Shown: piece after piece, positions 5,390-48,448 of the stretch | Position numbering within the stretch: position 1 is the first letter of the stretch | How the letters are laid out: every line of letters starts with the position of its first letter | Virus record (IMG/VR): IMGVR_UViG_3300045256_000127 | Source: a virus | Lineage: Duplodnaviria > Heunggongvirae > Uroviricota > Caudoviricetes | Reading direction: 5' to 3' (one strand) | Length of the DNA stretch: 48,800 nucleotides | Notes under the pieces: model-generated | The model's input: only the letters and a program-made list of their open reading frames with translations | The model's database searches: none | What the model was told of the DNA's origin: nothing | Made by a program: the position numbers and the translations under genes

Positions 5390-6255
5390 AATGTCTCGTC
5401 ACCGGCGGTGCCGGATTCATCGGAGCCAACCTCGTCCGCCGTCTACTGAACGACGGCCACGTTGTCGTGGTCTGGGACAACCTTTCGACCGGAAAGCGTG
5501 AAAACCTGCCGGGCAGTCCGCACGGCCACCTGAGCTTCTACGAGATCGACGTGGCCGACATCAGCCCGGAGAAGCACGTTGAGAAGCGGTTCGACATCAT
5601 CTACCACTTGGCGGCACACGCCCGCATCCAGCCCAGCTTCAAGTCGCCCGACGAGTCGTTCAAGGCCAACGTCGGCGGCACGCTGAAGATGCTCGAACTC
5701 GCCAAGAAGCATGACGTGCCGTTGATCTACGCCGGGTCGAGTTCGTTCTACCACGACAAGTACGCCAACCCCTACACCTTTACCAAGTGGCAGGGCGAAG
5801 AGTTGTGCGTCATGTACAACAAGGTCTACAAGGTGCCGACGGCCATCGCCCGGTTCTTCAACGTCTACGGCCCGTTCCAGATCGAAGACGGCCCGTTCGC
5901 AACCGTCATGGGCGTCTTCGAGAAGTGTAAGAGAGAGGGCAAGGCGTTCCCCATCACCGGCACCGGCGAGCAGCGACGGGACTTCACCCACGTTGACGAC
6001 GTGGTGGAAGGTCTGGTCAAGGTCGCCGAAAAGCGTTGGAACGCCGACATCTTCAACTTCGGCACCGGGGCCAACTACTCGGTGAAGGAGATCGCCCGGA
6101 TGTTCAAGCCGTCTGCGGCGAGCTATGTTCCGGGACGACCGGGCGAGGCACCGGAAACCCTGGCCGACATCAAAGCCACGAAGAAGGCGTTGGGCTGGAC
6201 GCCGAAGATCAAGGTCGATGAGTACATCAAGGAATTCGTGAGCAAATGCGGGTAA
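5386..6255 (+). CDS. NAD-dependent nucleotide-sugar epimerase/dehydratase (extended SDR)
   Basis: LVTGGAGFIG Rossmann motif, YxxxK (YTFTK), RFFNVYGP and RDFTHVDD; ATGA overlap at 5386. Confidence 0.92.
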   Translation: MKCLVTGGAGFIGANLVRRLLNDGHVVVVWDNLSTGKRENLPGSPHGHLSFYEIDVADISPEKHVEKRFDIIYHLAAHARIQPSFKSPDESFKANVGGTLKMLELAKKHDVPLIYAGSSSFYHDKYANPYTFTKWQGEELCVMYNKVYKVPTAIARFFNVYGPFQIEDGPFATVMGVFEKCKREGKAFPITGTGEQRRDFTHVDDVVEGLVKVAEKRWNADIFNFGTGANYSVKEIARMFKPSAASYVPGRPGEAPETLADIKATKKALGWTPKIKVDEYIKEFVSKCG

Positions 6256-6971: not shown

Positions 6972-8065
6972 TGAAGAACCTGTACGAAGTTCTCGGAGTC
7001 GAAAAGACGGCGACGAACGAAGAGATTCAAAAGGCGTACCGAAAGCTCGCCATGAAGTACCACCCGGACCGTAATCCGGGGGACGACGAGGCCACCGAGA
7101 AGTTTAAGGAAGCCGTAGCCGCCTACGAAGTGCTGTCCGACGATGACAAGCGGCGTCATTACGATATGGTCGGCGAAGCCCCACGCCGGACCGGCAACGC
7201 CCCGCCACCGCCGTCCTACGACGACTTCTTACGCAACTTCTTCAACGGCCAACAGACCAACCGCCAGAACGGCACGAACCTCATGACCGAGGTTGTGATC
7301 GACCTGGAGGACGTATTGACCGGCAAGGAAATCGAAATCCCGCACACCACCAAGAAAACCTGCCCCGACTGCGAAGGTGCAGGCGGCGATAAGATCGTCT
7401 GTCATGAGTGCGGCGGCTCAGGCTGGCGGCGGGCACAGCACTCGATGCGGGGCCAGAACATGTTCGTGCAGCAGTCGTGTAACACCTGCCAGGGGAAAGG
7501 CTACAAGATCGGTGCCCCGTGCGACAAGTGCAGCGGCCGGGGCATGACCGAAGAGGGCGAGAACATCCTGAAGCTGGTCATCCCGCCGGGCATCCCGGAC
7601 GGCGGGCAGATGATCTTCAAGGGCTGCGGCGGGCCGGGCAAGAACGGCGGCAGACCGGGCCACCTGATCGTCACCATCGCCGTTCGGGAACACAACCTGT
7701 ACAAGCGGCTGGACGACGGCAACCTGTTGATTAAGGTGCCCGTGTCGTTCACCCAACTGGTGCTGGGCGACGAGCTAGAGATTCCGACGTTGGACAAGAA
7801 GGTGGTTAACTTCCGCATCCCGCCGAAGTCCACGGCCGGGCGGAAGATGCGACTGGCCGGACAAGGACTGCCGAAGCACCACGAGTCGCCGGAGCGGGGC
7901 GACATCCTGGCCGAACTGATGCTGGAAGTTCCGCAGGGGGCGAACGAAGAGTTGGTCGCCCTGGTGGAGAAGATGGCAAAGTTCGACGAGGACGGATCGG
8001 TCTACCCCCGGAAAAAGCATCTCAAAGATGTGTGTGCGGGACTAAATAATAACCGGGAGGCATAA
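6971..8065 (+). CDS. dnaJ: DnaJ chaperone
   Basis: J-domain with HPD (YHPDRNPG), four CxxCxGxG-type repeats and C-terminal domain; TGATG overlap. Confidence 0.95.
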
Positions 8066-17491: not shown

Positions 17492-17516
17492 GCTTCACTT
17501 CCTTTCCTTTCTTTAT

Positions 17517-17849
17517 TTACTCTTCTTCTTCGTTGTTTCTCGGGGCAGTCGGGATTTGACCCCGCTGAACCACCCACACGCCCTGCTGGGGCTGGTTATT
17601 AGGCAGCTTCCGACCGGCCGGAACGGCAGTGCGGATCACGAAAATGATCCAGTACACCGCACACCACGACAGAAAGTCCAACGGGATGTTCAGGTTGAAC
17701 AGGTAGTTCAGGCTCTCGATGGTCAGGATCGGCGAGCCGATCAAAAGTAATAGAGCCAGGAAGGCCAGAAAGAAGAACCCCCTGGCCTCATCTTTTCGGC
17801 CGTCCTTCCACCAGTAGATGCCTTCTTGCAGGAATTCTAGGAACAGCAT
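17517..17849 (-). CDS. hypothetical membrane protein
   Basis: Two hydrophobic segments; AAGGAG RBS. Confidence 0.65.
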   Translation of the reverse strand: MLFLEFLQEGIYWWKDGRKDEARGFFFLAFLALLLLIGSPILTIESLNYLFNLNIPLDFLSWCAVYWIIFVIRTAVPAGRKLPNNQPQQGVWVVQRGQIPTAPRNNEEEE

Positions 17850-24757: not shown

Positions 24758-25054
24758 TCAGGAACATTCTGTAAATTTCATGTCGCCGGGCTGTGGTGGT
24801 TCAATAACAAGTGGTCCGTAGACGCCGTTTACCCACGCCAGGGCGAGGCGAACTTCTCCCCAGATGTTCTGCACAGCAAAGGCGTCAGGGTGGAGAGAGC
24901 GGATCGGGTTATCTTGCTCAACTCTGACTAGACCACGACCTTCCATCTTACCGTTTCCGGCGTAAGTCCAGTTGAGGATTTGTGGGTTCACTAAACAAGG
25001 GCGTGTCTTGTTGTCGATCTGGGCGTATGGAATTGAGTTGCGTTCGTTGCTCAT
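24758..25054 (-). CDS. hypothetical protein
   Basis: ORF track. Confidence 0.55.
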   Translation of the reverse strand: MSNERNSIPYAQIDNKTRPCLVNPQILNWTYAGNGKMEGRGLVRVEQDNPIRSLHPDAFAVQNIWGEVRLALAWVNGVYGPLVIEPPQPGDMKFTECS

Positions 25055-25438: not shown

Positions 25439-25477
25439 GCCATATATACCGCAGGAACTTCTTCTTTCAAGGTGGCT

Positions 25478-26248
25478 ATGCCCTATTCCGATGAAGAAAT
25501 GACGAGGTACGATGCCTACGTCGTTAGCTTAGAGGAGGCCACGGAGTCGGCAAAAGGGAAGATCAGGTCATTGGGTAAGATAGAGTCGGGACTGGAAATC
25601 TTCCGCATCGACGTGAACCCGGACGCCGAGGCGACCATGTGCGTCGGGGCGACGATCCACGGCAACGAGCCGTCCGGGGCGTTGGGCGTAGTGGAATACC
25701 TGAAGCTGGGTGTCGTCCCGGCCGACATCCACCTGATTGTCCTGCCGTTAATGAACCCCCACGGGTTCCTGAAGGACAACCGCTACACTGAGGGCAGGTT
25801 CGACCTGAACCGCTCTTTCAGGGCCAAAACGCCGCCGCCCGAGACGAAGATGATTCGGGAAACCCTGTCCGAGCAGAAGATCGACTTCCTGCTGAGCATG
25901 CACGAGGACAGCGAGTCGGCCGACTTTTACCTCTACGTCCCGGACTGCGTGACACCGACTGCTACCCGCCCTCTGCTCAAGCTGGCCGGGAAACACTTCC
26001 CGGTGAAGCCGGACGGCCTGTTCCGAGACGAGACGGTCAAGAGCGGGATGATCTCGTTTTCGGACCTGAACACCGCCACCCACAACATGAAGAGTTTCGA
26101 GTTCTGGGTGCGAAAGACCCACAAGTGTCCGTACATCTGCACGGAAATCCCGACCAAGTTTGAGCTTGCGAAGCGGGTGGCCTGTGCAAAAGGGCTAGTC
26201 CACTGGTGCGTCGGGAAGCACTTCCCGAAAATCTGCAAAAAGAAGTGA
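25478..26248 (+). CDS. M14 zinc carboxypeptidase / succinylglutamate desuccinylase family protein
   Basis: IHGNE (HxxE), NPHG...DLNRSF, LSMHED and a distal catalytic Glu region (CTEIP). Confidence 0.85.
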   Translation: MPYSDEEMTRYDAYVVSLEEATESAKGKIRSLGKIESGLEIFRIDVNPDAEATMCVGATIHGNEPSGALGVVEYLKLGVVPADIHLIVLPLMNPHGFLKDNRYTEGRFDLNRSFRAKTPPPETKMIRETLSEQKIDFLLSMHEDSESADFYLYVPDCVTPTATRPLLKLAGKHFPVKPDGLFRDETVKSGMISFSDLNTATHNMKSFEFWVRKTHKCPYICTEIPTKFELAKRVACAKGLVHWCVGKHFPKICKKK

Positions 26249-26516: not shown

Positions 26517-26552
26517 GGCGAGCGGAATTTCGGAAAAAATCTGAAAAGCCGC

Positions 26553-26581
26553 TTGCAAAAAAAATGTGTGGGGTCTATATT
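26553..26581 (+). promoter_or_regulatory. sigma70-type promoter
   Basis: TTGCAA-17 nt-TATATT with an upstream A-tract. Confidence 0.75.
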
Positions 26582-26611
26582 ACCTTACACAACAACCGGA
26601 GCGTGTTCGTC

Positions 26612-26686
26612 ATGCGTGCTTATTCGTTTAGTCTGTCATACTTGTCCTCGCTGCTTGCCAGCGGGCATAGGACTTTTACAGACTAA
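26612..26686 (+). CDS. attenuator leader peptide MRAYSFSLSYLSSLLASGHRTFTD
   Basis: GGAG RBS at 26598-26601; 12 consecutive Tyr/Ser/Phe/Leu codons. Confidence 0.8.
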   Translation: MRAYSFSLSYLSSLLASGHRTFTD

Positions 26687-26760
26687 GCGGAGCTAGAAGC
26701 CGCAGTAGGGTGCAGAAAGCCCTGCGAGTCTGTAAAAGGACTCGCAGGGCTTTTTCTTTT
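26623..26760 (+). promoter_or_regulatory. ribosome-mediated transcription attenuator (1:2, 2:3 antiterminator, 3:4 terminator)
   Basis: 1:2 = 26623-26636/26678-26691; 2:3 = 26673-26684/26727-26738 (12 perfect bp); 3:4 = 26716-26730/26739-26753 followed by a U-tract. Confidence 0.85.
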
Positions 26761-26768
26761 GGTACTCT

Positions 26769-27092
26769 ATGGGCAACTGGCAGATAGGACGACGGCGTAC
26801 CGGGATCGTGTACGACTACAATTGGGACGGACAGTTTGCGAAGGAAAGATGGAACGCCTTCGACAAGCGATACTGGAACAGGTGGCGGCGACGGGGTTGG
26901 AAAGAGGAGTTGAAAAACCTTGTTGACACCGCCTGGGAGGATGTGGTAGAAGTTGAAGATCAACATCGGCAGGAGAGCCGTGATGTTAACGATCTTCAAG
27001 ACGACCACGGGCAAGGAAGTGGACATCGACAGGCTCAAGGCGAGCGATCTGTCGAAAAAGCCGAACCTGGGATCAAGGAAATTGCTCTTTGA
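26769..27092 (+). CDS. hypothetical Trp/Arg-rich protein
   Basis: First ORF after the attenuator; C-terminal third overlaps the next gene. Confidence 0.5.
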   Translation: MGNWQIGRRRTGIVYDYNWDGQFAKERWNAFDKRYWNRWRRRGWKEELKNLVDTAWEDVVEVEDQHRQESRDVNDLQDDHGQGSGHRQAQGERSVEKAEPGIKEIAL

Positions 27093-27213
27093 TGACGGGT
27101 CGGAGATGTACCTGAGCGAGAGCGAGTTCGAAGAAGTCGCCGCCCAAGTGCATCGCTACTACCTTGCACGACGGATGAAGCAGAGGGTCTTTGACAACAC
27201 GGTGTTTCCGTAA
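26983..27213 (+). CDS. hypothetical protein
   Basis: AGGAG RBS, ATG at 26983. Confidence 0.65.
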   Translation: MLTIFKTTTGKEVDIDRLKASDLSKKPNLGSRKLLFDDGSEMYLSESEFEEVAAQVHRYYLARRMKQRVFDNTVFP

Positions 27214-27249
27214 TAAAGTCCCGACCGGCATTAGGTCGAGTCGGGCAAC

Positions 27250-27335
27250 GGGTGCTGATCCACACGCCTGTCTGTAAAACAGGTGCCATTACTCTGTGTG
27301 GTGGTCGGCGAGAGGTTCAATTCCTCCAGTACCCA
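27250..27335 (+). tRNA. non-canonical tRNA-Tyr(GTA)-like gene, 8/4 fold, no D-arm
   Basis: Acceptor GGGTGCTG/CAGTACCC, anticodon arm CCTGT-CTGTAAA-ACAGG, T-arm GAGG-TTCAATT-CCTC; only 9 nt in the D region. Confidence 0.6.
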
Positions 27336-27432
27336 CTGACGATCCGGGAATTCACGGTCGTCTATAGCTGATCTACCATGTTGTAGAAACAGTACCCCTT
27401 GCCGTTAGTGAAGAACTGGCGGCAGGAGCTTT

Positions 27433-27513
27433 GAGCGTACTTCTTAGTGGGATAAGACCCAGGCTGTAACCCTGGTGCCATTTGGCTAAGCGGTTCGATT
27501 CCGTATACGCTCA
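27433..27513 (+). tRNA. tRNA-Tyr(GTA)
   Basis: Acceptor GAGCGTA/TACGCTC, CCAGG-CTGTAAC-CCTGG, long variable arm, TTCGATT loop. Confidence 0.8.
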
Positions 27514-27516
27514 CTC

Positions 27517-27664
27517 GGTTTGGTGACGGAAGGGCAGACGTGCCAGTAGCCGCAAGGCTGTTGTTTCGGCAAAACCTCGTCTCCGCAAGGAGAATGCCGT
27601 TCGGAACTACATGTAAAACTGGTGTGCCGAAAGGTGCGTGTTGGTTCGAATCCAACCCAAGCCG
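27517..27664 (+). tRNA. tRNA-Tyr(GTA)-like gene with 63-nt structured insert in the anticodon arm
   Basis: Intact acceptor, D, variable and T arms; CCAGT-[insert 27548-27610]-ATGTAAA-ACTGG. Confidence 0.7.
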
Positions 27665-27669
27665 GAAAT

Positions 27670-27798
27670 GTGGCGGTAGCTCAATTGGTAGAGCGCTAAA
27701 AGCGTCTATACACCTACTGGTCTTCGCAAGAAGAATGCTCCGTATGGATTACATCCATGAAAAGGAAGAGGTTGCAGGTTCGAGTCCTGCCCGCCACA
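27670..27798 (+). tRNA. tRNA-Phe(GAA)-like gene with 56-nt insert in the anticodon stem
   Basis: Canonical acceptor, D and T arms; removing 27698-27753 gives CTTCC-ATGAAAA-GGAAG. Confidence 0.7.
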
Positions 27799-27818
27799 CT
27801 TGATTAAGAAGGGTAGAG

Positions 27819-28031
27819 ATGGTAAACTTCTACGTCTATATGGTTCGGGATAAGAACTCCGGCAGGTGGCACAATTGGGGTGGCCTGACCGAGTGGTATC
27901 CCGACACCGCCCAGGGCGGGACGTGGTGGTACAAGAAGGAAGAGGCCGAGAAGTTTGCGGCCGAATACCCAAAGGAAACAGGCATTGATGCGGAAGTGGT
28001 CACGGTCCACGTCTGCGAGATGCCTAAGTGA
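27819..28031 (+). CDS. hypothetical protein
   Basis: ORF between tRNA genes, with RBS. Confidence 0.65.
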   Translation: MVNFYVYMVRDKNSGRWHNWGGLTEWYPDTAQGGTWWYKKEEAEKFAAEYPKETGIDAEVVTVHVCEMPK

Positions 28032-28034
28032 CAC

Positions 28035-28121
28035 GGAGACTTGGCAGAGTGGCTTAATGCACCTGTCTTGAAAACAGGCGACCCCGCAAGGGGTCCGGGG
28101 GTTCGAATCCCTCAGTCTCCG
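28035..28121 (+). tRNA. tRNA-Ser(TGA)
   Basis: Canonical class II cloverleaf, CCTGT-CTTGAAA-ACAGG, G73. Confidence 0.95.
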
Positions 28122-28126
28122 CTCTT

Positions 28127-28216
28127 GGAAGATGAACCGGGCAGGCGTACCGGCACCGTTTCGAAAACGGTTGGCACCCTTGAATGTGGTGTGGGGATCG
28201 ATACCTCCGTCTTCCG
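28127..28216 (+). tRNA. tRNA-Ser(CGA), 8/4 type
   Basis: GGAAGATG/CGTCTTCC acceptor, 4-bp T stem, loop TTCGAAA, long variable arm, G73. Confidence 0.8.
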
Positions 28217-28222
28217 CTTTAC

Positions 28223-28312
28223 GGAAGGTAAAACAGACAGGCGCACTGTCATCGTTTGCTAAACGATTGGCACCCTTTAATGTGGTGTGAGGTTCGAGTC
28301 CTCTGCCTTCCG
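28223..28312 (+). tRNA. tRNA-Ser(GCT), 8/4 type
   Basis: GGAAGGTA/TGCCTTCC acceptor, GAGG/CCTC T stem, loop TTGCTAA. Confidence 0.82.
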
Positions 28313-28358
28313 CTCAAGAAAAACGGCGAGCTTTTTCTCGACCCTACTATGTTAGGGA

Positions 28359-28436
28359 ATGAAAGAGCAAATCGTTAAACTGCGTAGCCAGGGCTTAGGC
28401 TACAAAGCAATAGCTAAGATAGTTGGTGAGCCATAG
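28359..28436 (+). pseudogene. HTH-like fragment, possible homing-endonuclease remnant
   Basis: MKEQIVKLRSQGLGYKAIAKIVGEP*, AT-rich, between tRNA genes. Confidence 0.35.
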
Positions 28437-28496
28437 TGAATTCCTCGACCTGTGTAAAAAGGTCTTGATACACAATGGCTACTCTGTTCAAAAGTT

Positions 28497-28583
28497 GGAA
28501 GGTTAACCAGACAGGCGTGCTGGCTTCGCTTGGAAAGCGAATGGTGCCTTTACCGGCATGGAGATCGAGACTTCAGCCTTCCG
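28497..28583 (+). tRNA. tRNA-Ser(GGA), 8/4 type
   Basis: GGAAGGTT/AGCCTTCC acceptor, TTCGC-TTGGAAA-GCGAA, 4-bp T stem. Confidence 0.8.
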
Positions 28584-28591
28584 CTCCACTA

Positions 28592-28823
28592 GCGGTGTTG
28601 CAACACCGTGATGTGGCAAGAGGTTAACTGACGGGTTGTTACGACTCGTTGGTGACAGCAGAAACGTCCCGTTGGGCCGCAAGGTCGCCTCGGGCAACGT
28701 ACAGAAATGCGAGTTAGGGGCTACTTCTCCACTAAGCCTAAACCAATGGAGAACTGGTGTACTGGCGCACACCCGGCCGTAAACCGGGAGGAGTGGGTTC
28801 GATTCCCATGCAAACGCCTCTGC
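28592..28823 (+). ncRNA. structured RNA ending in tRNA-like D, anticodon (GTA) and T arms without a local acceptor stem
   Basis: CCCGG-CCGTAAA-CCGGG at 28772-28788, GTGGG-TTCGATT-CCCAT, and several upstream hairpins. Confidence 0.45.
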
Positions 28824-28853
28824 TTACTACGTCTGTGCTGTTAGCCTCTTAAT

Positions 28854-28925
28854 GGTGCTTAGGTGTAACGGTTGCATTTGTGGTTGAAACCCACGAGGCA
28901 GCGGGTTCGACTCCCGCAGGCACCA
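28854..28925 (+). tRNA. tRNA-Phe(GAA)
   Basis: GGTGCTT/AGGCACC acceptor, TGTGG-TTGAAAC-CCACG, canonical T arm. Confidence 0.85.
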
Positions 28926-28926
28926 C

Positions 28927-29053
28927 TCGGTAGAATGCAGTTAGGATTACATGGTTGAAGTCTGGACCCCAAAAGGGTCTTTGATTAGGCTGTTCGAATC
29001 AGCCTCTCCTCGAAAGAGGGGTATAAGAAATCTTAGCGACCCTGGTCTACCGA
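28927..29053 (+). ncRNA. candidate multibranch RNA with a T-loop hairpin
   Basis: Closing helix TCGGTAGA/TCTACCGA; AGGCTG-TTCGAAT-CAGCCT; two further hairpins. Confidence 0.5.
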
Positions 29054-29058
29054 AACAT

Positions 29059-29152
29059 TGGCGAGTGGCGGAATAGTAGACGCAGCCCCGTTTTGTGGGG
29101 CCGATGGGCTGATCTCCCATCATGCAGGTATCGAATCCTGCCTCGCCAACCA
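29059..29152 (+). tRNA. Leu-type class II tRNA body with TTT anticodon and encoded CCA
   Basis: TGGCGAG/CTCGCCA acceptor, D-loop GAATAGTAGA, GCCCC-GTTTTGT-GGGGC, long variable arm, 8-nt T loop, A73-CCA. Confidence 0.65.
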
Positions 29153-29153
29153 T

Positions 29154-29226
29154 GCCAGCCAAGCTAACTTAGTAGAAGCGCATCGCTGAAAACGATGAGG
29201 ACTCGGAGCGTAACCGAGGGCTGGCA
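29154..29226 (+). tRNA. tRNA-Phe(GAA) with atypical T loop (AGCGTAA)
   Basis: GCCAGCC/GGCTGGC acceptor, CATCG-CTGAAAA-CGATG. Confidence 0.8.
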
Positions 29227-29250
29227 CTTACCCTAACTCAAGGATGAGTT

Positions 29251-29814
29251 ATGACGATTTGCGAAGACTTCGGAGGAATCGAAGTCACCACGAAAAACGC
29301 CTTCGGCATCGGCTACATTAACCGAAAGGTGTTGTTGAAGATCACCTGGGTGAGCTACGGAGCTTACACGATCACCGTGCAGAAGGCCGCTGAGTTGCCG
29401 ATGTCTGCCAACAAGTACACCGAGCCGAAGACTGATTACTCAATCAGCATCACGCCGGAACAGGTGGACAAGGTGGCCGAGTTGTTCGAGGCCGCAGAAA
29501 CGCCCGAACGGATGCAGTGTTACAAGCCGTTCTACGAGGACTACGACCCGGACCGGAGCATGTTTGACATGGAACACGACACGTTGTTCCAGGCGTTCAA
29601 GCAGAAGGATCGGGTCATCCTGACGAACATCAACTTCGTGTGCGGCGTGCCGTCGAGCATGGATTCGCTGAACATGACGTTCGAGGACTACCTGAAGTTC
29701 AAGGCGTACCTCGACAGCAAGAGGGATCAGGTCTTCTACTCGGGAGTAAAGTTCGGTCCAGCAGGGGTGGAGGCAGTGTGGTGCGGCGAGAAGAAGCCGG
29801 ACCATGTAAAGTAA
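29251..29814 (+). CDS. hypothetical protein
   Basis: 187 aa ORF with RBS. Confidence 0.7.
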   Translation: MTICEDFGGIEVTTKNAFGIGYINRKVLLKITWVSYGAYTITVQKAAELPMSANKYTEPKTDYSISITPEQVDKVAELFEAAETPERMQCYKPFYEDYDPDRSMFDMEHDTLFQAFKQKDRVILTNINFVCGVPSSMDSLNMTFEDYLKFKAYLDSKRDQVFYSGVKFGPAGVEAVWCGEKKPDHVK

Positions 29815-29953
29815 GTCGGTATGGTGTAATGGCAGCACGCCGCCCGGAGAGGGCAGGCTACCGGGGATCGTTCCCCTGGCGTTGCTTTACCAAAGGCAGC
29901 GGGATGGTATCCTAGTCTCTAGGGAAGTTGGGGTTCGAATCCCTATACCGGCT
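29815..29953 (+). ncRNA. tRNA-like RNA with anticodon arm replaced by a ~80-nt multi-hairpin domain
   Basis: GTCGGTA/TACCGGC acceptor, GTGT-AATGGCA-GCAC D arm, TGGGG-TTCGAAT-CCCTA T arm; no assignable anticodon. Confidence 0.65.
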
Positions 29954-29967
29954 CTTGGAGACACAAA

Positions 29968-30471
29968 ATGCCTCTGCTCGTGGTCGTGGACAGCATCCAC
30001 TACTCGCCGAAGGACAGCGAGACGGCGACGAAGGAACTGCTGATCGTCCGTGACCTGGATCAAGCCCTGGGGTACATCGACCAGGAACACCTGCTCGGGT
30101 ACTTCAAGGACGGCGACGACCAGGACGAGGACAGCGGCTACTACTCGCCGAGCGACGAGTGGTGGGAGCAGAACCCGACCAAGCGGGCCGAGGCGGAAGC
30201 CCTGGGTCTTGAGATCAGTGAATACGGCTCGGTTAGCGGGACTGGCGAGAACCTGACCCGGTGGTTGTCCTCGAACGACTGGAAGGATGCGGACGACGCC
30301 TACTACGGCGTGACGCACTACGACTGGTCGAAGCGGCAAGAGATCAGCGACGACGACGTTGCCACACTACTTCGCCTCGGACTGGCGAAGGACATTAGGG
30401 AATGGAAGCCCGATGAAGACGTACAGGGTAGTGATTCCGCCGCCGAAGGCGAAGCGGATGATGAGTCTTGA
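29968..30471 (+). CDS. hypothetical acidic protein
   Basis: ORF track, GGAG RBS. Confidence 0.7.
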   Translation: MPLLVVVDSIHYSPKDSETATKELLIVRDLDQALGYIDQEHLLGYFKDGDDQDEDSGYYSPSDEWWEQNPTKRAEAEALGLEISEYGSVSGTGENLTRWLSSNDWKDADDAYYGVTHYDWSKRQEISDDDVATLLRLGLAKDIREWKPDEDVQGSDSAAEGEADDES

Positions 30472-30700
30472 GAAGACGCTGCATGTCACCTTCGGGGACG
30501 GCTGGGGGCACGGCGGGGTCCACAAGTACACAATCCCCGCCGACAAGTTCTCCGCTGAGTTCTCGTTGAATGACGACGCCGAGTACAAGTACAACACGAG
30601 CATGATCGACGGCTTGACGTTCGACGTGTTCGTGGAGTACAAGAACGAGAGCGGCAGTCGAACGGAACGAAAGCACCTTGTACCGGAGTTGGTGACATGA
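30458..30700 (+). CDS. hypothetical protein
   Basis: ATG at 30458 overlapping the upstream stop region. Confidence 0.55.
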   Translation: MMSLEKTLHVTFGDGWGHGGVHKYTIPADKFSAEFSLNDDAEYKYNTSMIDGLTFDVFVEYKNESGSRTERKHLVPELVT

Positions 30701-30873
30701 AGGAACACAACTGGTCGGGGGACCGCTGTGTGGACTGCAACCGGCCCAGGGACGACGCCGGGGTGGAATGTCCGGGCGAGCCGGACAAGGACGCTGTGAT
30801 GCGATCCCCGCACGTCATTCATGGCGTGACCCTTCAGCCAGAGATGCTGCCAGGGTGCTTCCCAGAGAACTGA
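30697..30873 (+). CDS. small Cys-containing hypothetical protein (58 aa)
   Basis: ATGA overlap; MKEHNWSGDRCVDCNRPR... Confidence 0.45.
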   Translation: MKEHNWSGDRCVDCNRPRDDAGVECPGEPDKDAVMRSPHVIHGVTLQPEMLPGCFPEN

Positions 30874-30874
30874 G

Positions 30875-31060
30875 ATGAAGCGAACGATACACTACATCGA
30901 CACGGCGGGCCTGTCCCAGCGGCAGGCACTAGCCCTGATCGAGCGTCTGAAAGACTGCATCCGCACGGGCAAGAAGTTGCCGACGATGTACGTCGTCAGG
31001 ACGGAAGAAGTAGAAGTGTCTAATGTCCATATGGGGGAACAGGCAGACCCGCCAGTTTGA
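30875..31060 (+). CDS. hypothetical protein, reads into tRNA-Leu
   Basis: ORF track. Confidence 0.5.
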   Translation: MKRTIHYIDTAGLSQRQALALIERLKDCIRTGKKLPTMYVVRTEEVEVSNVHMGEQADPPV

Positions 31061-31106
31061 GGGACTGGTGCCGCAAGGCGTGCAGGTTCGACTCCTGCTA
31101 TGGACA
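31025..31106 (+). tRNA. tRNA-Leu(GAG), long variable arm
   Basis: GTCCATA/TATGGAC acceptor, CCAGT-TTGAGGG-ACTGG, A73. Confidence 0.9.
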
Positions 31107-31157
31107 CTTTACAAAAGCCGAGAAGGCCATAGACTGCGATCTCCAACGGAGGACGAC

Positions 31158-31508
31158 ATGATCGCAGTCATGTGTACGCAAGGGACACTCAAGTTCCAAG
31201 AGATTCGGGACGAGTGTCCCACGAACAAGTGGTTCCCCATCCTGACCTACGTCATCAACGGGGAGCAAGTGCTACTTTTGTTTTCGGACCAAAAGGTAGC
31301 CAAGCAGTTCATCAAGCGGAACCTTCCGAAAGACTGGCTGCACGGGGCCATCGAACTGACCGACGACGACGAGAAGATGCTGCGAGAGCGGTTCAAGGTG
31401 CGGGAGATGAACTACCCGAACCTGATGAAAGACCTGCCCGGCATCGAGTGGAAGGAAGAAGTGCTGGAACTCGACGAGCGGCCCAACTTCCATGTAAGTA
31501 GACTGTAG
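31158..31508 (+). CDS. hypothetical protein
   Basis: GGAGGA RBS, ATG at 31158. Confidence 0.7.
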   Translation: MIAVMCTQGTLKFQEIRDECPTNKWFPILTYVINGEQVLLLFSDQKVAKQFIKRNLPKDWLHGAIELTDDDEKMLRERFKVREMNYPNLMKDLPGIEWKEEVLELDERPNFHVSRL

Positions 31509-31577
31509 ACACGGCGAACTTTCCGGTGTAAATTCTGAGAAGTCGCCCGCCTCTCTACTCGCAACGGAGTTCGCAAG

Positions 31578-32018
31578 ATGACCGTGAAGACCGTGGACAT
31601 CCGCCCCTCCCAGGCCATCATGGGGATCGCCCTGTTCGCCGCCATCGGCTTGAGCGGGTGGCAGTTCTGGAAGAACGAGGACACGAAGGTCAAGACGGAG
31701 TTGAAGACGAACCTGACCGAGCAGGAGATTCGCCTGCTCCAACAGGAACTCGCCACCGCCCGGCACGAACTGCTGGAGGAGAAGACCAAGCCGAGCTACG
31801 ACGACGGCTACCGGGCCTGCATCCTGAGCATGGGTGGGGCGCAGCAGAACGGGTCGTACAAGGACGGGTGGGACGCCGCCGTGAAGATGCTGAACAACCG
31901 GAGCTACGCCGACGGCTACCACAACGCCATCGAGCAGTTCGGCTACCAGACGCAGGGCAAGCAGATCGTCCCGAAGAACGAGCCGGAAAGTTCGGCGAAG
32001 ACCGAACCGAAGAAGTGA
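31578..32018 (+). CDS. hypothetical membrane-anchored coiled-coil protein
   Basis: N-terminal TM segment; repeated YxDG[YW] motif. Confidence 0.7.
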   Translation: MTVKTVDIRPSQAIMGIALFAAIGLSGWQFWKNEDTKVKTELKTNLTEQEIRLLQQELATARHELLEEKTKPSYDDGYRACILSMGGAQQNGSYKDGWDAAVKMLNNRSYADGYHNAIEQFGYQTQGKQIVPKNEPESSAKTEPKK

Positions 32019-32047
32019 TCGAAGTGTCCGTCTAACAGGCGGACCAC

Positions 32048-32122
32048 GCCATCGTAGACCAACTGGCAGGAGTCACCAGACTGAGATGCTGGGCAGTGTG
32101 GGTTCGAATCCCACCGATGGCA
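32048..32122 (+). tRNA. tRNA-Leu(GAG), short variable loop
   Basis: GCCATCG/CGATGGC acceptor, loop CTGAGAT, one anticodon-stem mismatch. Confidence 0.75.
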
Positions 32123-32146
32123 CTGAATTCGTTAGTGAAGGAGTTT

Positions 32147-32425
32147 ATGTCTAGGAAGACCTTTTACCGCCAATGCCGTCTGGTCCGCAAGACCGAGACG
32201 GGCACGATGAACCAAGTAAGCTGGATTCCCGAGCCTTACTGTGTGAAGGACAAGGTGCTGAAGCTGAAGAAGGACGACGGCACCTGGGAGAACGGCTGGG
32301 TGGTAGAAGGTGCCGGTGACAACCGGCTGGCCCAAGACCAACTCCCGGACTACCACACGATGATTAAGGGGCACCGGAAGAACACCGGCGACTCCGAGCC
32401 GAAGCAGAAGAAGGTGACTGCGTGA
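32147..32425 (+). CDS. hypothetical protein
   Basis: AAGGAG RBS. Confidence 0.7.
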   Translation: MSRKTFYRQCRLVRKTETGTMNQVSWIPEPYCVKDKVLKLKKDDGTWENGWVVEGAGDNRLAQDQLPDYHTMIKGHRKNTGDSEPKQKKVTA

Positions 32426-32868
32426 CGGATGAGCCGAAGATGGTGACGTTCTGTTTCCAAACAGTCGATACCGAAGGCAGAGGGAAAAACCTGATGACAC
32501 CGGATGAGGCGAAGGAGAAGGTTGTCGAGGCGATCAAGGCGGGGCGAGTCAGCTTCGCACCCAGAGCCGAGGAGTCTTTGGCGAATATGTCTCTCGACAA
32601 CCCGGACTTCACCGTCACGAAGGTCACGATGAACGAAGGCAACCTGCGGAACAACGCAGGTCGCTGGATCGGGTTCGAGTGGGAAACCGTCTCGGCAGGA
32701 TTCGGTGAAACCGTGTTCTGCCTCTACAACGACGGGCGGGTGGAGATCGACAACGAAGCAATGAGCCGGGACTTCATCAAGAACGTCCTGGCGAAGTGCG
32801 AGAACGAGGAGGTTCGAGAGCGGCTTCTGAGGCTGCTACCGACAGCGAAGCTGTACGACGAAAAGTAA
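32422..32868 (+). CDS. hypothetical protein
   Basis: GTGA overlap. Confidence 0.65.
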   Translation: MTDEPKMVTFCFQTVDTEGRGKNLMTPDEAKEKVVEAIKAGRVSFAPRAEESLANMSLDNPDFTVTKVTMNEGNLRNNAGRWIGFEWETVSAGFGETVFCLYNDGRVEIDNEAMSRDFIKNVLAKCENEEVRERLLRLLPTAKLYDEK

Positions 32869-32874
32869 CGACAT

Positions 32875-32949
32875 GCCGTCGTAGACCAACTGGCAGGAGT
32901 CGCCATGCTCAGAACGTGGACAGTGTGGGTTCGAATCCCACCGACGGCA
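32875..32949 (+). tRNA. tRNA-Leu(CAG), short variable loop
   Basis: GCCGTCG/CGACGGC acceptor, CCATG-CTCAGAA-CGTGG. Confidence 0.85.
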
Positions 32950-32952
32950 CTA

Positions 32953-33075
32953 GGGGTAGCTGTTCCCTCCTTCAACGGGAATAGCGGCGAGATGGGTGTG
33001 GGTAATCGCCTTAAAACAACATACCACTGTACCGTAAGGTAACATGGGGAGCAACGGCTGACCACAAGCCGCCCC
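32953..33075 (+). ncRNA. candidate structured spacer RNA between two tRNA-Leu genes
   Basis: GCTGTTCCC/GGGAATAGC and GGCGA/TCGCC hairpins; GGGG/CCCC ends. Confidence 0.4.
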
Positions 33076-33080
33076 GATAT

Positions 33081-33156
33081 CGCACCGTAGACCAATTTGG
33101 CAGGAGTCGCCTCGCTTAGAACGAGGACAGTGTGGGTTCGAATCCCTCCGGTGCGA
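33081..33156 (+). tRNA. tRNA-Leu(TAG), short variable loop
   Basis: CGCACCG/CGGTGCG acceptor, CCTCG-CTTAGAA-CGAGG. Confidence 0.85.
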
Positions 33157-33181
33157 CTCATATTACACTAAGGGCAACGAG

Positions 33182-33940
33182 ATGTCCCGGACCTTCGCTC
33201 CGATCAGCATCGACGACCTGCGTGCCAAGATCGACGCCATCTGCGGCGACGAGGGCGTGAGGCCACTGATCGACAAGCTGGGCAAGGACATCAAGGTCGA
33301 GTTCGACCTGGAGAACGTCGCATACGACGCCGACGACTTCGGGCCGAAGTCGGTGCTGGGCTACCACACCGAGAACGGGTTGACGTGGTGCGGCTTCGCC
33401 GCTGGTGGGGATTGGGAACACCCCGTCTTCTTCATGGTGTATTGGGACGGGAAGAAGCTGCGGGGCTATGTGCCGACCGACGGCAACCCCTGGAACAGCA
33501 TCACCAAGCAAGCCTACGGCAACGACGACGAGAAAGACCTACAAGACGCCAAGAAGCGGTGGCCCGAAACCTACGCCGACGTAGAAGAAGTGGAAGGCCA
33601 CGACTTCGAGTTCGACGAGAAGGCGATCAAGGCCGACTTCATGGCTCGGATCGCCCCGGCCGGTGGCGCAGCCGCACCCACCAAGAAAACAAAGAAGACC
33701 AAGCAGACCATCGAGGAGCGGATCGTCGCCCTGAAATTCTACGGGACCGGCGACGAAGCCTACGAGTTGTTCCAGCAGACCTGCGGCCTGTGTTACTCGA
33801 TGAACGCCCTGGGCACGCCCGAGCAAGCCGAGACGCTGTGCAAGTGGGCCGAGGAGATGGCCGCTCAGAGCTACGAGGACGCCGTGCAGAACGACGGCGA
33901 CCTGAACGACGTAGCACAAGGCTGGTGGGGACGCCAGTAA
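33182..33940 (+). CDS. hypothetical acidic two-domain protein
   Basis: 252 aa ORF. Confidence 0.75.
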   Translation: MSRTFAPISIDDLRAKIDAICGDEGVRPLIDKLGKDIKVEFDLENVAYDADDFGPKSVLGYHTENGLTWCGFAAGGDWEHPVFFMVYWDGKKLRGYVPTDGNPWNSITKQAYGNDDEKDLQDAKKRWPETYADVEEVEGHDFEFDEKAIKADFMARIAPAGGAAAPTKKTKKTKQTIEERIVALKFYGTGDEAYELFQQTCGLCYSMNALGTPEQAETLCKWAEEMAAQSYEDAVQNDGDLNDVAQGWWGRQ

Positions 33941-33964
33941 ACTATACTAAGGCAAAGGAATGCC

Positions 33965-34588
33965 ATGTCAAAAGAAACTGAAGACCTGATCGCCAAGTGG
34001 GAAGCCGAGCCGAACGACCGGATTTACATTCGGCACGGCGAGAGTCGGTACAACAAGAAAGAAACGACCGATCTCGACAGCGAACTCACTGACGAAGGCG
34101 TTCTCCAAATCCGCCGTGTCGCTCGCTGGCTCAAAGACAACGTTCCGAAGCTCCTGTACTCCGGGTACTTCGGCGTGACGACGCCGTACCTGCGAGCGTT
34201 GCAGTCGGCCCGGATCATCCGGGAGATCACCGGCCTTCCGTTCCACGTTCACTCCGGCCCTCGGGAAGTGATGACGTGTTACGATTCCGTCGAGATCAAG
34301 AACCGAAGCTGGGAGTTCAAAGACCTGGACTGGTCGCTGTGCCTGACCGAGCCGTGGAAGTTTCGGCGTGAAACCGACGACGACTTCTGCAAGCGAGTCC
34401 GCCAGTACCATGAGGACTGCTCTCGCATCAAACGGATGGTGACGGTTTCGCACGGCACGCCCATCGTGGCCTTGCACGAGTTGGATCAGGGAATCAAGAA
34501 CCCGCCGAACGTTGTGCAATATCCGAGAAATGGGAGCGTAACTCGGGTTGTCGGCGGGAAGCTGGTTTGTTATGATCTTGTGGTATGA
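33965..34588 (+). CDS. histidine phosphatase (phosphoglycerate mutase-like) family protein
   Basis: IRHGES, PYLRALQSA and VSHG motifs. Confidence 0.88.
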   Translation: MSKETEDLIAKWEAEPNDRIYIRHGESRYNKKETTDLDSELTDEGVLQIRRVARWLKDNVPKLLYSGYFGVTTPYLRALQSARIIREITGLPFHVHSGPREVMTCYDSVEIKNRSWEFKDLDWSLCLTEPWKFRRETDDDFCKRVRQYHEDCSRIKRMVTVSHGTPIVALHELDQGIKNPPNVVQYPRNGSVTRVVGGKLVCYDLVV

Positions 34589-34908
34589 GCGAAGCAAAAG
34601 AAAAGATGGTTATCGAGATCGATAACCTGACCCCGGCCCAGAAGCTTGCAATCGAAGACATGCTGGCGACGTGGGTTTCCCTCGGACAGATGGGAAGCTC
34701 ACGCTGGACAGCGTTCTTCGCCGACGGCGACGGCAACTTCCACCCGAAGGTGACGGTAGACGGGGAAGACGCCCAGCCGTGCAAGCTGACGGACCGGGAG
34801 AAGCGTTGGCGTGACGCCGCTTTCGCCACCCTCGACGGCGGCTCGATCTCGACCGACATGTACATGATCGACTTCGACGAGATCGCATGGGCGTTGCGAA
34901 AGGACTAA
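34585..34908 (+). CDS. hypothetical protein
   Basis: ATGA overlap. Confidence 0.65.
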   Translation: MSEAKEKMVIEIDNLTPAQKLAIEDMLATWVSLGQMGSSRWTAFFADGDGNFHPKVTVDGEDAQPCKLTDREKRWRDAAFATLDGGSISTDMYMIDFDEIAWALRKD

Positions 34909-34915
34909 AGTAGAT

Positions 34916-34997
34916 GGCCTCGTGGGGGAACTGGCAGACCCGCATGACTCAAAATCTTGTGCCGCAAGGCGTGTCGGTTCGAGTCCGACCGAGGCTA
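34916..34997 (+). tRNA. tRNA-Leu(CAA), long variable arm
   Basis: GGCCTCG/CGAGGCT acceptor, loop CTCAAAA, A73. Confidence 0.88.
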
Positions 34998-35028
34998 CTT
35001 TAACTCTCCCCGCTTCAAGGATGAAGTG

Positions 35029-35448
35029 ATGAAAAAGGTCGTTGGCAAAGTCGGCGAGGAACTTCGCCTTCACTACGGCAAGACTCCAGAGGAGTACCGG
35101 GCGTTCGCCGCAGGCTTCGCAGCGGGTCAGGCCGAAAAGGTGTACCTGGGTGCCTGTCAGGCAGCTATGTTCCGCCCGAGTAATGACCACTTCGAGTGGT
35201 ATTACCAGGAAGTGAAGCGAATCGCTGATGCCTACGGCCTAGAAACTCGTGTGCTGTCTTCCTTCCAAATGGAGACATCCCACGAGATTTGGATTTACAG
35301 GGAGAAGACGGTCGTCGGGATGTGGATGATGCAGGACATCAACTCCCCGGAGTGGCACCAACTGCGTGCCCAACTCTGCGGCATCCCGGCCGACGAGGTT
35401 GATGTGAACTACCACCTGCGGAGCGGGTACGGAGAGAAGTGTGATTGA
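35029..35448 (+). CDS. hypothetical protein
   Basis: ATG at 35029 in ORF 34957..35448. Confidence 0.65.
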   Translation: MKKVVGKVGEELRLHYGKTPEEYRAFAAGFAAGQAEKVYLGACQAAMFRPSNDHFEWYYQEVKRIADAYGLETRVLSSFQMETSHEIWIYREKTVVGMWMMQDINSPEWHQLRAQLCGIPADEVDVNYHLRSGYGEKCD

Positions 35449-35740
35449 GAACGCAGAAGTCCGGCTGGCCGACAGGACGATCAAGACCCGGCTGCACGAG
35501 CATGGCGAGGATCGGTTCGACGGGAAGTCTGTGAACACCGGCTACTTCGACGGGAAGTTGGCTGAGATGCAGGCGATCCTCGACGCCAAGTTGACGACGG
35601 TCGAGATTTATGTTGACGGTAAGCTCGACACGACACTCACCGGGGCACACGCTTGGAAGCTTCATGATTGGAGCTACAAGGATTACGATCACGCCGTCCT
35701 GCATGTGCATTGGGATTACGAGGAAGACGAAGACTATTGA
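35441..35740 (+). CDS. hypothetical protein
   Basis: ORF track, coupled to neighbours. Confidence 0.6.
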   Translation: MIENAEVRLADRTIKTRLHEHGEDRFDGKSVNTGYFDGKLAEMQAILDAKLTTVEIYVDGKLDTTLTGAHAWKLHDWSYKDYDHAVLHVHWDYEEDEDY

Positions 35741-35928
35741 TGAAGAGGATCACAAATATCGACGATGTGGTTCGCTCGGTTCTTGTGTATGGCGAGCAGG
35801 GTATCTTTTGGATGCCGAAAGCACCTAGAGAATACTGGCCTCACCTATACGAAGCCTTACTTCCGCATCGAGACAATCAATACGCAGGAGCAATCCTGTC
35901 GGCTATTGAAAAACTGACGGCACCATAG
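35740..35928 (+). CDS. hypothetical protein
   Basis: TGATG overlap; stop codon lies inside the tRNA gene. Confidence 0.55.
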   Translation: MKRITNIDDVVRSVLVYGEQGIFWMPKAPREYWPHLYEALLPHRDNQYAGAILSAIEKLTAP

Positions 35929-35993
35929 ACCAACTGGCAGGAGTCGCCTCGCTCAAAACGAGGACAGTGTGGGTTCGAATCCCTCTGGTGCTA
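35919..35993 (+). tRNA. tRNA-Leu(CAA), short variable loop
   Basis: GGCACCA/TGGTGCT acceptor, CCTCG-CTCAAAA-CGAGG. Confidence 0.85.
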
Positions 35994-36012
35994 CTGAACT
36001 TTAACTTGGAGG

Positions 36013-45882: not shown

Positions 45883-46800
45883 ATGTTGAAAAACATTGGG
45901 TTGGACATGATCCGGGTCACTGAGGGAGCAGCCATCGCTGCGAGCCAGTGGGTCGGCAGTGGTAACAAAGAAGCCGCCGATAAGGCGGCTTCCGACGCTA
46001 TGAGGGAACGCTTCGCCGAGATCGACTTCCTCGGCCGGGTTGCCATTGGTGAAGGAGTTAAAGACAAGAGCTACGGACTCTTCCAGGGCGAGATGGTCGG
46101 GGGTGCCGCCAGGACTCCAGAGACATGTTTCGATCTCGCCATCGACCCCATCGAAGGCACAACCCCGACCGTCACGTCCGGGCCGGAGGCCATCAGCACC
46201 ATCGCCTTCTCCAACGAGAACACGATGTACCAGACGCCCGCCTTCTACATGAACAAGCTGGCTTACGGCAAGGAGATCGCCTCGAAGGGCCGGTTCAGCA
46301 TCAACATGCACATCACGCAGATCGTGAAGCACATGTCGTCGCAGATCGGCAAGCCGCTCGACAAGATGATGGTCTGCATCCTGAACCGCCCCCGCCACGA
46401 GGAATGGATCAAGGGTCTTCGGGAACTCGGCGTTCGGATCAAGCTCATTCAGGACTGCGACGTGTCCGGTGCGATTGCGGCCTGCCTGCCGAACAGCGGC
46501 GTGGACTTGCTCTACGGCATCGGCGGCGCACCGGAGGCGGTGATCTCCGCAGCGGCGATCAAGTGCATGGGCGGGGACTTCCAGGTCTACGAGGTAGACA
46601 AAGAGATGAAGCAGTCCTCTCCAATCCTGGGGATGGAAGACTTAGTTAAAGGCGAGTGTGCCTTCGTGGCGACGGGCATCACCCGTGGCAGCATTCTGGA
46701 CGGCGTGCGGGTGGTCAACGGCCGACCCGTCACCAACAGCGTGTTCATGCGAAGCACGAGTAACACTATTCGATGGATGACTACCGAACATGGGAACTAA
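45883..46800 (+). CDS. glpX: class II fructose-1,6-bisphosphatase
   Basis: AIGEGVKD, DLAIDPIEGT, LNRPRH, IQDCDVSG, GIGGAPEAV and FVATGIT. Confidence 0.93.
   Translation: MLKNIGLDMIRVTEGAAIAASQWVGSGNKEAADKAASDAMRERFAEIDFLGRVAIGEGVKDKSYGLFQGEMVGGAARTPETCFDLAIDPIEGTTPTVTSGPEAISTIAFSNENTMYQTPAFYMNKLAYGKEIASKGRFSINMHITQIVKHMSSQIGKPLDKMMVCILNRPRHEEWIKGLRELGVRIKLIQDCDVSGAIAACLPNSGVDLLYGIGGAPEAVISAAAIKCMGGDFQVYEVDKEMKQSSPILGMEDLVKGECAFVATGITRGSILDGVRVVNGRPVTNSVFMRSTSNTIRWMTTEHGN

Positions 46801-47400: not shown

Positions 47401-47404
<4 letters not shown>
47201..47404 (+). CDS. small protein with Rmf-like CPF...AWxxG motif
   Basis: [17 protein letters not shown]. Confidence 0.45.

Positions 47405-48448
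<1,044 letters not shown>

Follow-up and report, generated by a model that had tools for sequence, protein, structure and literature searches.

Leader-peptide attenuation is the textbook control of amino-acid biosynthesis, and of a few synthetase genes, in bacteria. Some enterobacterial leaders are multivalent: the thr leader carries both Thr and Ile codons, and the leaders of ilvGMEDA and ilvBN carry Ile, Leu and Val codons. Here we describe an element of comparable design at positions 26553–26760 of a 48,800-nucleotide stretch of viral DNA (IMG/VR record IMGVR_UViG_3300045256_000127; Caudoviricetes), referred to in its full length as the window, which is part of a very large uncultivated phage. 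The element lies ahead of two small protein genes, here called A and B, and of a region of tRNA genes. We consider it probable that it is a multivalent ribosome-mediated leader-peptide transcription attenuator, in which slow decoding of Tyr, Ser, Leu and possibly Phe codons would let transcription proceed into genes A and B and the tRNA region. The general mechanism of leader-peptide attenuation is set out in PMC1183508, and a leader with three hairpins, that of ilvBNC, in PMC11857589; the pheM leader of the phenylalanyl-tRNA synthetase operon pheST and the pheL leader of pheA are covered in PMC3082878. Phage tRNAs have separately been described as a means of counter-defense, in the response of the T5 tRNA-Lys to PARIS (PMC11464382) and in that of phage tRNAs to retron effectors (PMC11555353). 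Our literature search returned no report of leader-peptide attenuation in a phage or ahead of tRNA genes.

The attenuator reading is based on in silico observations of four kinds, namely the parts of the element (Table 1), three alternative folds of its RNA, the conservation of these folds, and the correspondence between the leader codons and the downstream tRNA genes. An initial annotation of the window had already proposed the promoter, ribosome binding site, open reading frame (ORF), codon run and helices 1:2 and 2:3, and a check of the sequence recovered every one of them, position for position.

Relatives of the locus were recovered from metagenomes through protein look-ups using the flanking genes. 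Searches of INPHARED by megablast, blastn and tblastn gave no close relatives, only tRNA matches, and neither protein and DNA pattern look-ups in IMG/VR nor exact-pattern scans of JGI metagenome contigs yielded any; contigs L001, L004 and L005 were rejected as chance matches. The complete leader is present in six contigs (L002, L003, L008, L010, L011 and L012), and L013 contains its 3′ end only. Two contigs, from soil (X23) and aquaculture (X19), span the terminator and continue into gene A. A wastewater RNA library (X7) supplied a further variant, on a contig of 199 nt, bringing the total to eight leaders from no fewer than 5 lineages, counting that of the window. The alignment-based conservation statistics below refer to seven leader sequences, or lineages, and the leaders are 89% identical.

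The signals for transcription and translation of the leader are well conserved. Both hexamers of promoter P1 are kept in the seven lineages with a variable spacer between them, the only departures being TTGAAA in L012 and TATTAT in L008 and L012, and the A-rich stretch upstream is UP-element-like and may act as such. The first 30 transcript nucleotides (26587–26616, ACACAACAACCGGAGCGTGTTCGTCATGCG), which include the Shine-Dalgarno sequence and the AUG, are invariant in all seven lineages, whereas the flanking protein genes are only 65–90% identical. Shine-Dalgarno sequences of the GGAG type at similar spacing are common among the genes of this phage. The leader ORF is open and in frame in all eight leaders, and its sole change in length is a 3-nt indel that gives a 23-codon version in L003, L008, L011 and L012. 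Its TAA lies inside segment 2 in eight of eight.

Codons 4–15 of the leader (TAT TCG TTT AGT CTG TCA TAC TTG TCC TCG CTG CTT) comprise ten different codons, all of them for Tyr, Ser, Phe or Leu. Loss of this run in homologs had been named at the outset as evidence that would speak against attenuation; it is instead retained in all eight leaders, at a length of 12–14 codons. The 14 amino-acid replacements within the run all remain among the four residues (S>L, S>Y, Y>S, L>S and A>S), and Tyr and Ser exchange positions inside it; codons 18–22, by contrast, vary freely. Random placement of substitutions retains the set with p = 8e-4 for the nine differences to L003 and p = 0.017 for the five differences to X7. 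The property is specific to the leader frame, as the other two frames of the run give unrelated residues or a stop. Composition kept without positional conservation is what would be predicted for a codon sampler and not for a structured peptide. The initial annotation had put the probability of such a run at about 1e-7, which is too optimistic: shuffles that preserve local composition give P = 0.003 for a run of at least 12 codons anywhere in the window, and about 1e-5 for these 36 nt in the leader frame. An 11-codon Tyr/Ser/Phe/Leu run at 17499–17531, antisense to the CTP synthase gene, is a chance product of composition and served as a control.

The leader RNA can adopt three alternative folds. 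Helix 1:2 (26623–36/26678–91) has 14 bp with two G-U pairs. Helix 2:3 (26673–84/26727–38) is a perfect 12-mer complement, and 12-mer inverted repeats within 130 nt number eight in the whole 48.8-kb window, two of them in the leader. The terminator, first described with a 15-bp stem, has 18 pairs when G-U pairs are included and sits between the leader ORF and gene A. The unconstrained minimum free energy (MFE) fold consists of helix 1:2, the hairpin inside the ORF, which is a possible pause hairpin, and the terminator (z = −6.1 relative to shuffles). The effect of a ribosome was modeled by constraint folding, in which its footprint was masked and the RNA folded up to the end of segment 3. With the ribosome at codons 4–15, the MFE fold is a three-way junction in which helix 2:3 encloses the GCGG/CCGC and GUAGGGU/GCCCUGC hairpins, and the junction covers 26719–26738, which is most of the terminator 5′ arm and its loop. 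The antiterminator put forward in the initial annotation is thus predicted for a ribosome stalled at codons 6–14, although helix 2:3 does not suffice for it; it needs the two enclosed hairpins, one of which (26705–11/26719–25) covers the middle of the terminator 5′ arm. With no ribosome present helix 1:2 forms and helix 2:3 does not, and with a ribosome at the stop codon, inside segment 2, helix 2:3 cannot form. The same three-state behavior is seen in all five leaders tested (the window and four relatives). The energies of the three domains are near-equal (−31.2, −29.7 and −32.1 kcal/mol), and in either alternative the stability lies well beyond that of shuffles (z about −4; 0/1000). The number of paired nucleotides in the terminator arm before segment 4 was also tried as a measure; it does not discriminate, 23% of shuffles reaching 12, and the energy z-score was used in its place.

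Both folds are maintained across the alignment, with 98.1% of cells paired in the terminated fold and 93.5% in the antiterminated fold. Pairing in helix 1:2 survives each of its nine one-sided changes (9/9). The terminator contains one compensatory pair (G-C to A-U in L010) and helix 2:3 another (G-C to U-A, window versus all others). Variable columns are concentrated at positions that are unpaired in both folds (29/47, compared with 20/100; Fisher p = 1.4e-6).

The tRNA genes of the window specify Tyr, Ser, Phe and Leu, apart from one odd UUU gene, and are spread among small ORFs over 27.2–43.3 kb. Six contigs reach the array, the same six that carry the complete leader, and every downstream tRNA called in them, in L011 over a stretch of 10 kb, is a Tyr, Leu, Ser or Phe tRNA. 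This identity of the two four-amino-acid sets across lineages is, at the level of sequence, the strongest argument that leader and array would belong together. The proposal that each leader codon has a matching anticodon downstream holds for seven of nine anticodons by ARAGORN (GTA, GAA, GCT, TGA, CAG, CAA and GAG); the remaining two, CGA and GGA, can be read only in non-canonical Ser-like genes (28127–28218 and 28497–28585) that neither ARAGORN nor Rfam calls. The trp/his/pheM-type architecture first suggested for the element is supported by the constraint folding of homologous leaders, by the conservation of frame and run, and by downstream tRNA sets of the same four amino acids.

Table 1. 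Coordinates of the leader element and of the features downstream of it in the window.
Feature	Position	Strand	Remarks
A-rich stretch upstream of the −35 box	26526–26552	+	GAAAAAA-type stretch kept here in relatives
Promoter P1	26553–26581	+	TTGCAA (26553–58), 17 nt, TATATT (26576–81); sigma70-type; promoter scan match
5′ untranslated region (UTR)	26587–26611	+	GGAG Shine-Dalgarno at 26598–26601; alignment of 7 lineages
Leader ORF	26612–26686	+	24 codons + TAA (MRAYSFSLSYLSSLLASGHRTFTD); ATG 26612, TAA 26684–86
Regulatory run, 12 consecutive Tyr/Ser/Phe/Leu codons	26621–26656	+	Codons 4–15
Run in window and L002			YSFSLSYLSSLL
Run in X7			YSFSLSSLYSLL
Run in L003 and L008			YLFSLYSSSSLL
Run in L010, L011 and L012			YLFSLYSSSSLLSS
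Segment 1, 5′ strand of anti-antiterminator helix 1:2	26623–26636	+	99% of cells paired
Hairpin inside ORF (CUCGCUG/CAGCGGG)	26647–26665	+	Conserved; compensatory C-G to U-A (26647/26665) in X7
Segment 2, contains leader stop	26673–26691	+	Pairs with segment 1 (26678–91) or segment 3 (26673–84)
GCGG/CCGC hairpin of antiterminated fold	26687–26703	+	Stem invariant, loop highly variable, 7 lineages
GUAGGGU/GCCCUGC hairpin of antiterminated fold	26705–26725	+	26705–11/26719–25; 100% of cells paired
Segment 3, top of terminator 5′ arm and loop; partner of segment 2	26727–26738	+	10-bp core paired in all lineages
Intrinsic terminator	26714–26762	+	18-bp stem (26714–26755, including G-U), 6-nt loop, T tract; terminator scan and folding
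Gene A, Trp/Arg-rich basic small protein	26769–27092	+	Constrained to about 26985; tail overlaps gene B
Gene B, 75-amino-acid protein	26986–27213	+	AGGAG Shine-Dalgarno
Promoter-like site P2	27191–27219	+	TTGACA, 17 nt, TAAAGT; overlaps gene B end, directly before first tRNA-like gene
Hairpin CCCGAC/GUCGGG between gene B and first tRNA-like gene	27220–27245	+	Compensatory C-G to U-A in L008 and L010
tRNA region that read-through would reach	27221–35994	+	Tyr, Ser, Phe and Leu genes amid small ORFs; ARAGORN, Rfam

From these features we infer that the leader is translated, that ribosomes stall within it, that read-through is conditional, and that a physiological trigger sets the condition. Transcription would start from P1 at about 26588, and a ribosome would load at the GGAG and AUG and read the 24-codon leader. 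When decoding is fast, the ribosome would reach the UAA in segment 2, or would already have left and allowed helix 1:2 to form; in either case segment 2 would be unavailable, the 18-bp terminator would form, and transcription would stop at about 26760. When the charged cognate tRNAs are scarce, decoding would be slow and a stalled ribosome would cover segment 1. Segment 2, being freed, would pair with segment 3 and, together with the two enclosed hairpins, lock the terminator 5′ arm, so that RNA polymerase would continue through genes A and B and into the tRNA region for Tyr, Ser, Phe and Leu. A decoding module would in this way come under homeostatic control, set by the speed at which its own codons are decoded. 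Candidate triggers are a mismatch between the host tRNA pool and phage codon usage, loss or shut-off of host tRNAs during infection, and a defense that cleaves tRNAs. The X7 contig covers just 26571–26760 and ends at the T tract, whereas DNA contigs of other runs go on into gene A; this suggests, if weakly, an accumulation of terminated leader RNA.

Several observations weigh against this interpretation. At equilibrium and full length the terminator fold wins by about 10–15 kcal/mol, and therefore the choice made by the switch must be kinetic. The trp attenuator shows the same order, its terminator being the more stable of the two structures. Covariation in relatives, which had been proposed as a check on the helices, is found as the single compensatory pair each in helix 2:3 and the terminator, but it does no better than shuffles, 45/500 and 80/500 of which reach the observed scores; variation among leaders of 89% identity is too low for the statistic to attain significance. 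Several codons of the run are partly fixed by RNA pairing, codon 5, which faces GCGG, always being YYG, and X7 has a TCC>TAT change that forms one half of a compensatory pair, so retention of the four-residue set is in part a consequence of structure; the Tyr/Ser swaps fall in unpaired positions. Phe is represented by a single TTT, which itself lies inside helix 1:2. The 5′ end of the X7 contig falls ~20 nt ahead of the predicted transcription start, and the contig may be DNA carry-over. The terminator directly precedes genes A and B, which belong to no known family, and not tRNA genes, and the conserved, consensus-like P2 stands just before the array, which need not depend on read-through. 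Finally, the invariant 30-nt 5′ UTR is not explained by attenuation, nor indeed by any of the readings considered here; possible roles are as a binding site and as a translation enhancer.

Other explanations of the locus can be weighed on much the same evidence. It is unlikely, in our judgment, that the element is an independent short transcription unit whose product, either a stable ~170-nt small RNA or a 24-residue peptide, has its own function and in which the alternative pairings are incidental or serve RNA stability. The very high nucleotide conservation, which includes a 5′ UTR that an attenuator does not need, would suit such a unit, as would the terminator fold that always prevails at equilibrium and the X7 contig that covers the leader only; in Sinorhizobium, small RNAs derived from attenuators, and leader peptides, are known to act in trans (PMC7968998 and PMC7298713). 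This explanation leaves unaccounted for the 10–12-bp complement between segment 2 and the terminator, which is rare (8 in 48.8 kb) and conserved with compensatory change, the stop codon placed exactly in segment 2 in all leaders, and the match of the run to the four amino acids of the downstream tRNA genes. The peptide moreover keeps its composition and not its positions (Tyr and Ser being swapped), unlike a folded or membrane peptide. A small RNA or peptide function and attenuation are not mutually exclusive.

That the terminator and antiterminator are switched by something other than a ribosome, either the gene A protein acting on its own leader or an RNA, at the 5′ UTR or segment 2 and with the ORF incidental, seems quite unlikely to us. 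Attenuators operated by proteins are well known, TRAP and L10(L12)4 being examples (PMC3064811 and PMC4538822), and gene A, directly behind the terminator, encodes a basic, Trp/Arg-rich product; a factor of this kind could also give a role to the invariant 5′ UTR, otherwise unexplained. An incidental ORF would scarcely account for a frame that survives a 3-nt indel, for the invariant Shine-Dalgarno sequence and AUG, or for a run that is frame-specific and whose 14 replacements stay in the set, and the leader shows no repeated protein-binding motif and matches no Rfam family, T-box included. It is highly improbable that the terminator simply marks the 3′ end of the upstream operon, which includes the peptidase gene (25472–26248), with a chance ORF ahead of it and the downstream genes on their own promoters. 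Such an operon would find no other terminator between the upstream plus-strand genes and 26714, and P2 before the array and the TTGACA promoter of gene B in L007 do provide for separate initiation; against this, P1 shows the conservation of a true promoter (hexamers kept, spacer variable, A-rich stretch upstream), gene A begins 13 nt behind the terminator and lacks its own promoter, and helices 1:2 and 2:3 and the conserved codon run would be left unexplained.

The lineage represented by L007 (8500–8800) and L009 (560–1269) has neither the leader nor P2, and most of gene A is missing as well. Its gene B has a promoter of its own, TTGACA-17-TAAAAA, derived from sequence that codes in the window; downstream of gene B a 16-bp hairpin takes the place of a tRNA, none being found in the 200 nt available. 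We count it in favor of the attenuator reading that the only lineage without the leader is also without P2 and most of gene A.

Genes A and B overlap in different frames. Relatives differ at third positions of the gene A frame up to ~26985 and at third positions of the gene B frame from 26986 onward, and because of this switch the last ~35 codons of the 107-amino-acid gene A ORF are probably unconstrained overprinting. Neither gene belongs to a Pfam or PHROG family, and the protein atlas gave no lead for gene A. AlphaFold models of the two proteins have predicted local distance difference test (pLDDT) scores of 53 and 65, too low for a structure search. The TTGACA of P2 is invariant in the seven lineages, where the synonymous sites of gene B are nearly invariant, and is followed by a −10-like hexamer of the form TAnAnn; the tRNA array may thus have a transcription input of its own from this site. 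The CCCGAC/GUCGGG hairpin that follows gene B may serve in processing or in stabilization of a 3′ end. Its 5′ arm lies upstream of any start from P2, and therefore RNA from further upstream must exist. The terminator scan found no strong plus-strand terminator between 26755 and 38609, the next being at 38609–38629. The hairpin and the lack of such a terminator speak against a fully independent array. That the leader gates the tRNA array, and that the tRNAs are transcribed only on stalling, are both too strong as claims, with genes A and B coming first and P2 placed before the array.

Some tRNA genes of the region are structurally atypical. Three (27249–27335, 27432–27513 and 28222–28312) score higher with the Rfam tRNA-Sec model (25–37 bits, below threshold) than with the general tRNA model. 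At 27670–27798 Rfam reports a tRNA of 129 nt, complete for model positions 1–71 and with an insert of ~56 nt, which ARAGORN does not report. The region also carries a histidine-phosphatase-family gene (33965–34588), a DUF1653 gene (38172–38450) and a GlpX-type fructose-1,6-bisphosphatase gene (45883–46800). No second leader-like cassette was found before the later tRNAs at 39.2 kb and 41.4 kb; a 9-codon run at 25051, considered as one, was rejected as antisense to a minus-strand gene.

The element stands near a change in the direction of transcription. A minus-strand block extends up to ~25.4 kb and encodes a class II ribonucleotide reductase, SbcC/SbcD-like nucleases, CTP synthase and an amidotransferase. 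The plus-strand block begins at ~25.47 kb with an M14/AstE-type peptidase gene (25472–26248), and the leader element follows 300 nt further on. Genes of the IS200/IS605 type (TnpB, and in L007 a Y1 transposase) are present at 47401–48432 in the window, at 7978–9117 in L003 and at 5640–7321 in L007; given these differing places in different relatives, the region is a hot spot for such elements.

If the attenuator reading is correct, it would explain how the tRNA expression of large phages is matched to need, the signal being the decoding speed of specific codons, and a part in some response related to tRNAs becomes likely for genes A and B. The element, with its sigma70-type signals, is compact and self-contained. 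A broader proposal, which we offer tentatively and regard as rather doubtful at present, is that giant phages carry a self-tuning decoding module, in which the leader gauges the decoding of Tyr, Ser and Leu codons (read by class II tRNAs) and of Phe codons, and failure of tRNA supply, for example through a host defense that targets tRNAs or shut-off by the phage, releases two effector genes and structurally unusual replacement tRNAs. This would be the first tRNA-supply sensor known to control tRNA genes, and would represent a general logic in large phages.

By mechanism the phage leader has the sequence-level hallmarks of the classical attenuators, and by homology it can be assigned neither to an Rfam leader family nor to the T-boxes. 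The Rfam Trp, His, Leu, Thr and Phe leader families gave no match at the gathering score or at E values up to 10, only terminator-like chance matches, and the T-box model gave none. T-box riboswitches resemble the phage element in sensing tRNA charging and in switching between terminator and antiterminator ahead of translation-related genes, but they contact the tRNA itself, by a specifier loop and the T-box bulge, and work without translation, whereas the phage element conserves an ORF of the translated type. The PARIS and retron cases supply a reason for a phage such as this one to carry its own tRNAs when those of the host are destroyed; they are not documented for the host of this phage, which is not known to have a defense aimed at tRNAs, and the papers describe the tRNAs and no sensor controlling them.

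With the thr and ilv leaders the phage leader shares a short ORF led by a Shine-Dalgarno sequence, in which regulatory codons for several amino acids form a run, an overlapping series of 1:2 pause or anti-antiterminator, 2:3 antiterminator and 3:4 terminator helices, and a stop codon at which a ribosome ending translation would obstruct segment 2. As these leaders are already multivalent, the sampling of several amino acids, at first taken to be novel, is not the new element here; the target is. The phage leader has no sequence homology to them, is encoded by a phage and would sense Tyr, Ser, Phe and Leu; its antiterminator is predicted to be a three-way junction and not a single helix; and downstream, in place of a biosynthetic operon, lie a pair of small genes and a tRNA gene block that serves these same four amino acids. 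The pheM leader comes close in purpose, as it applies leader-peptide attenuation to the decoding machinery and places a synthetase gene under the supply of its own charged tRNA. The pheM leader responds to one amino acid and governs a synthetase, whereas the phage leader would sample four, with their tRNA genes lying downstream.

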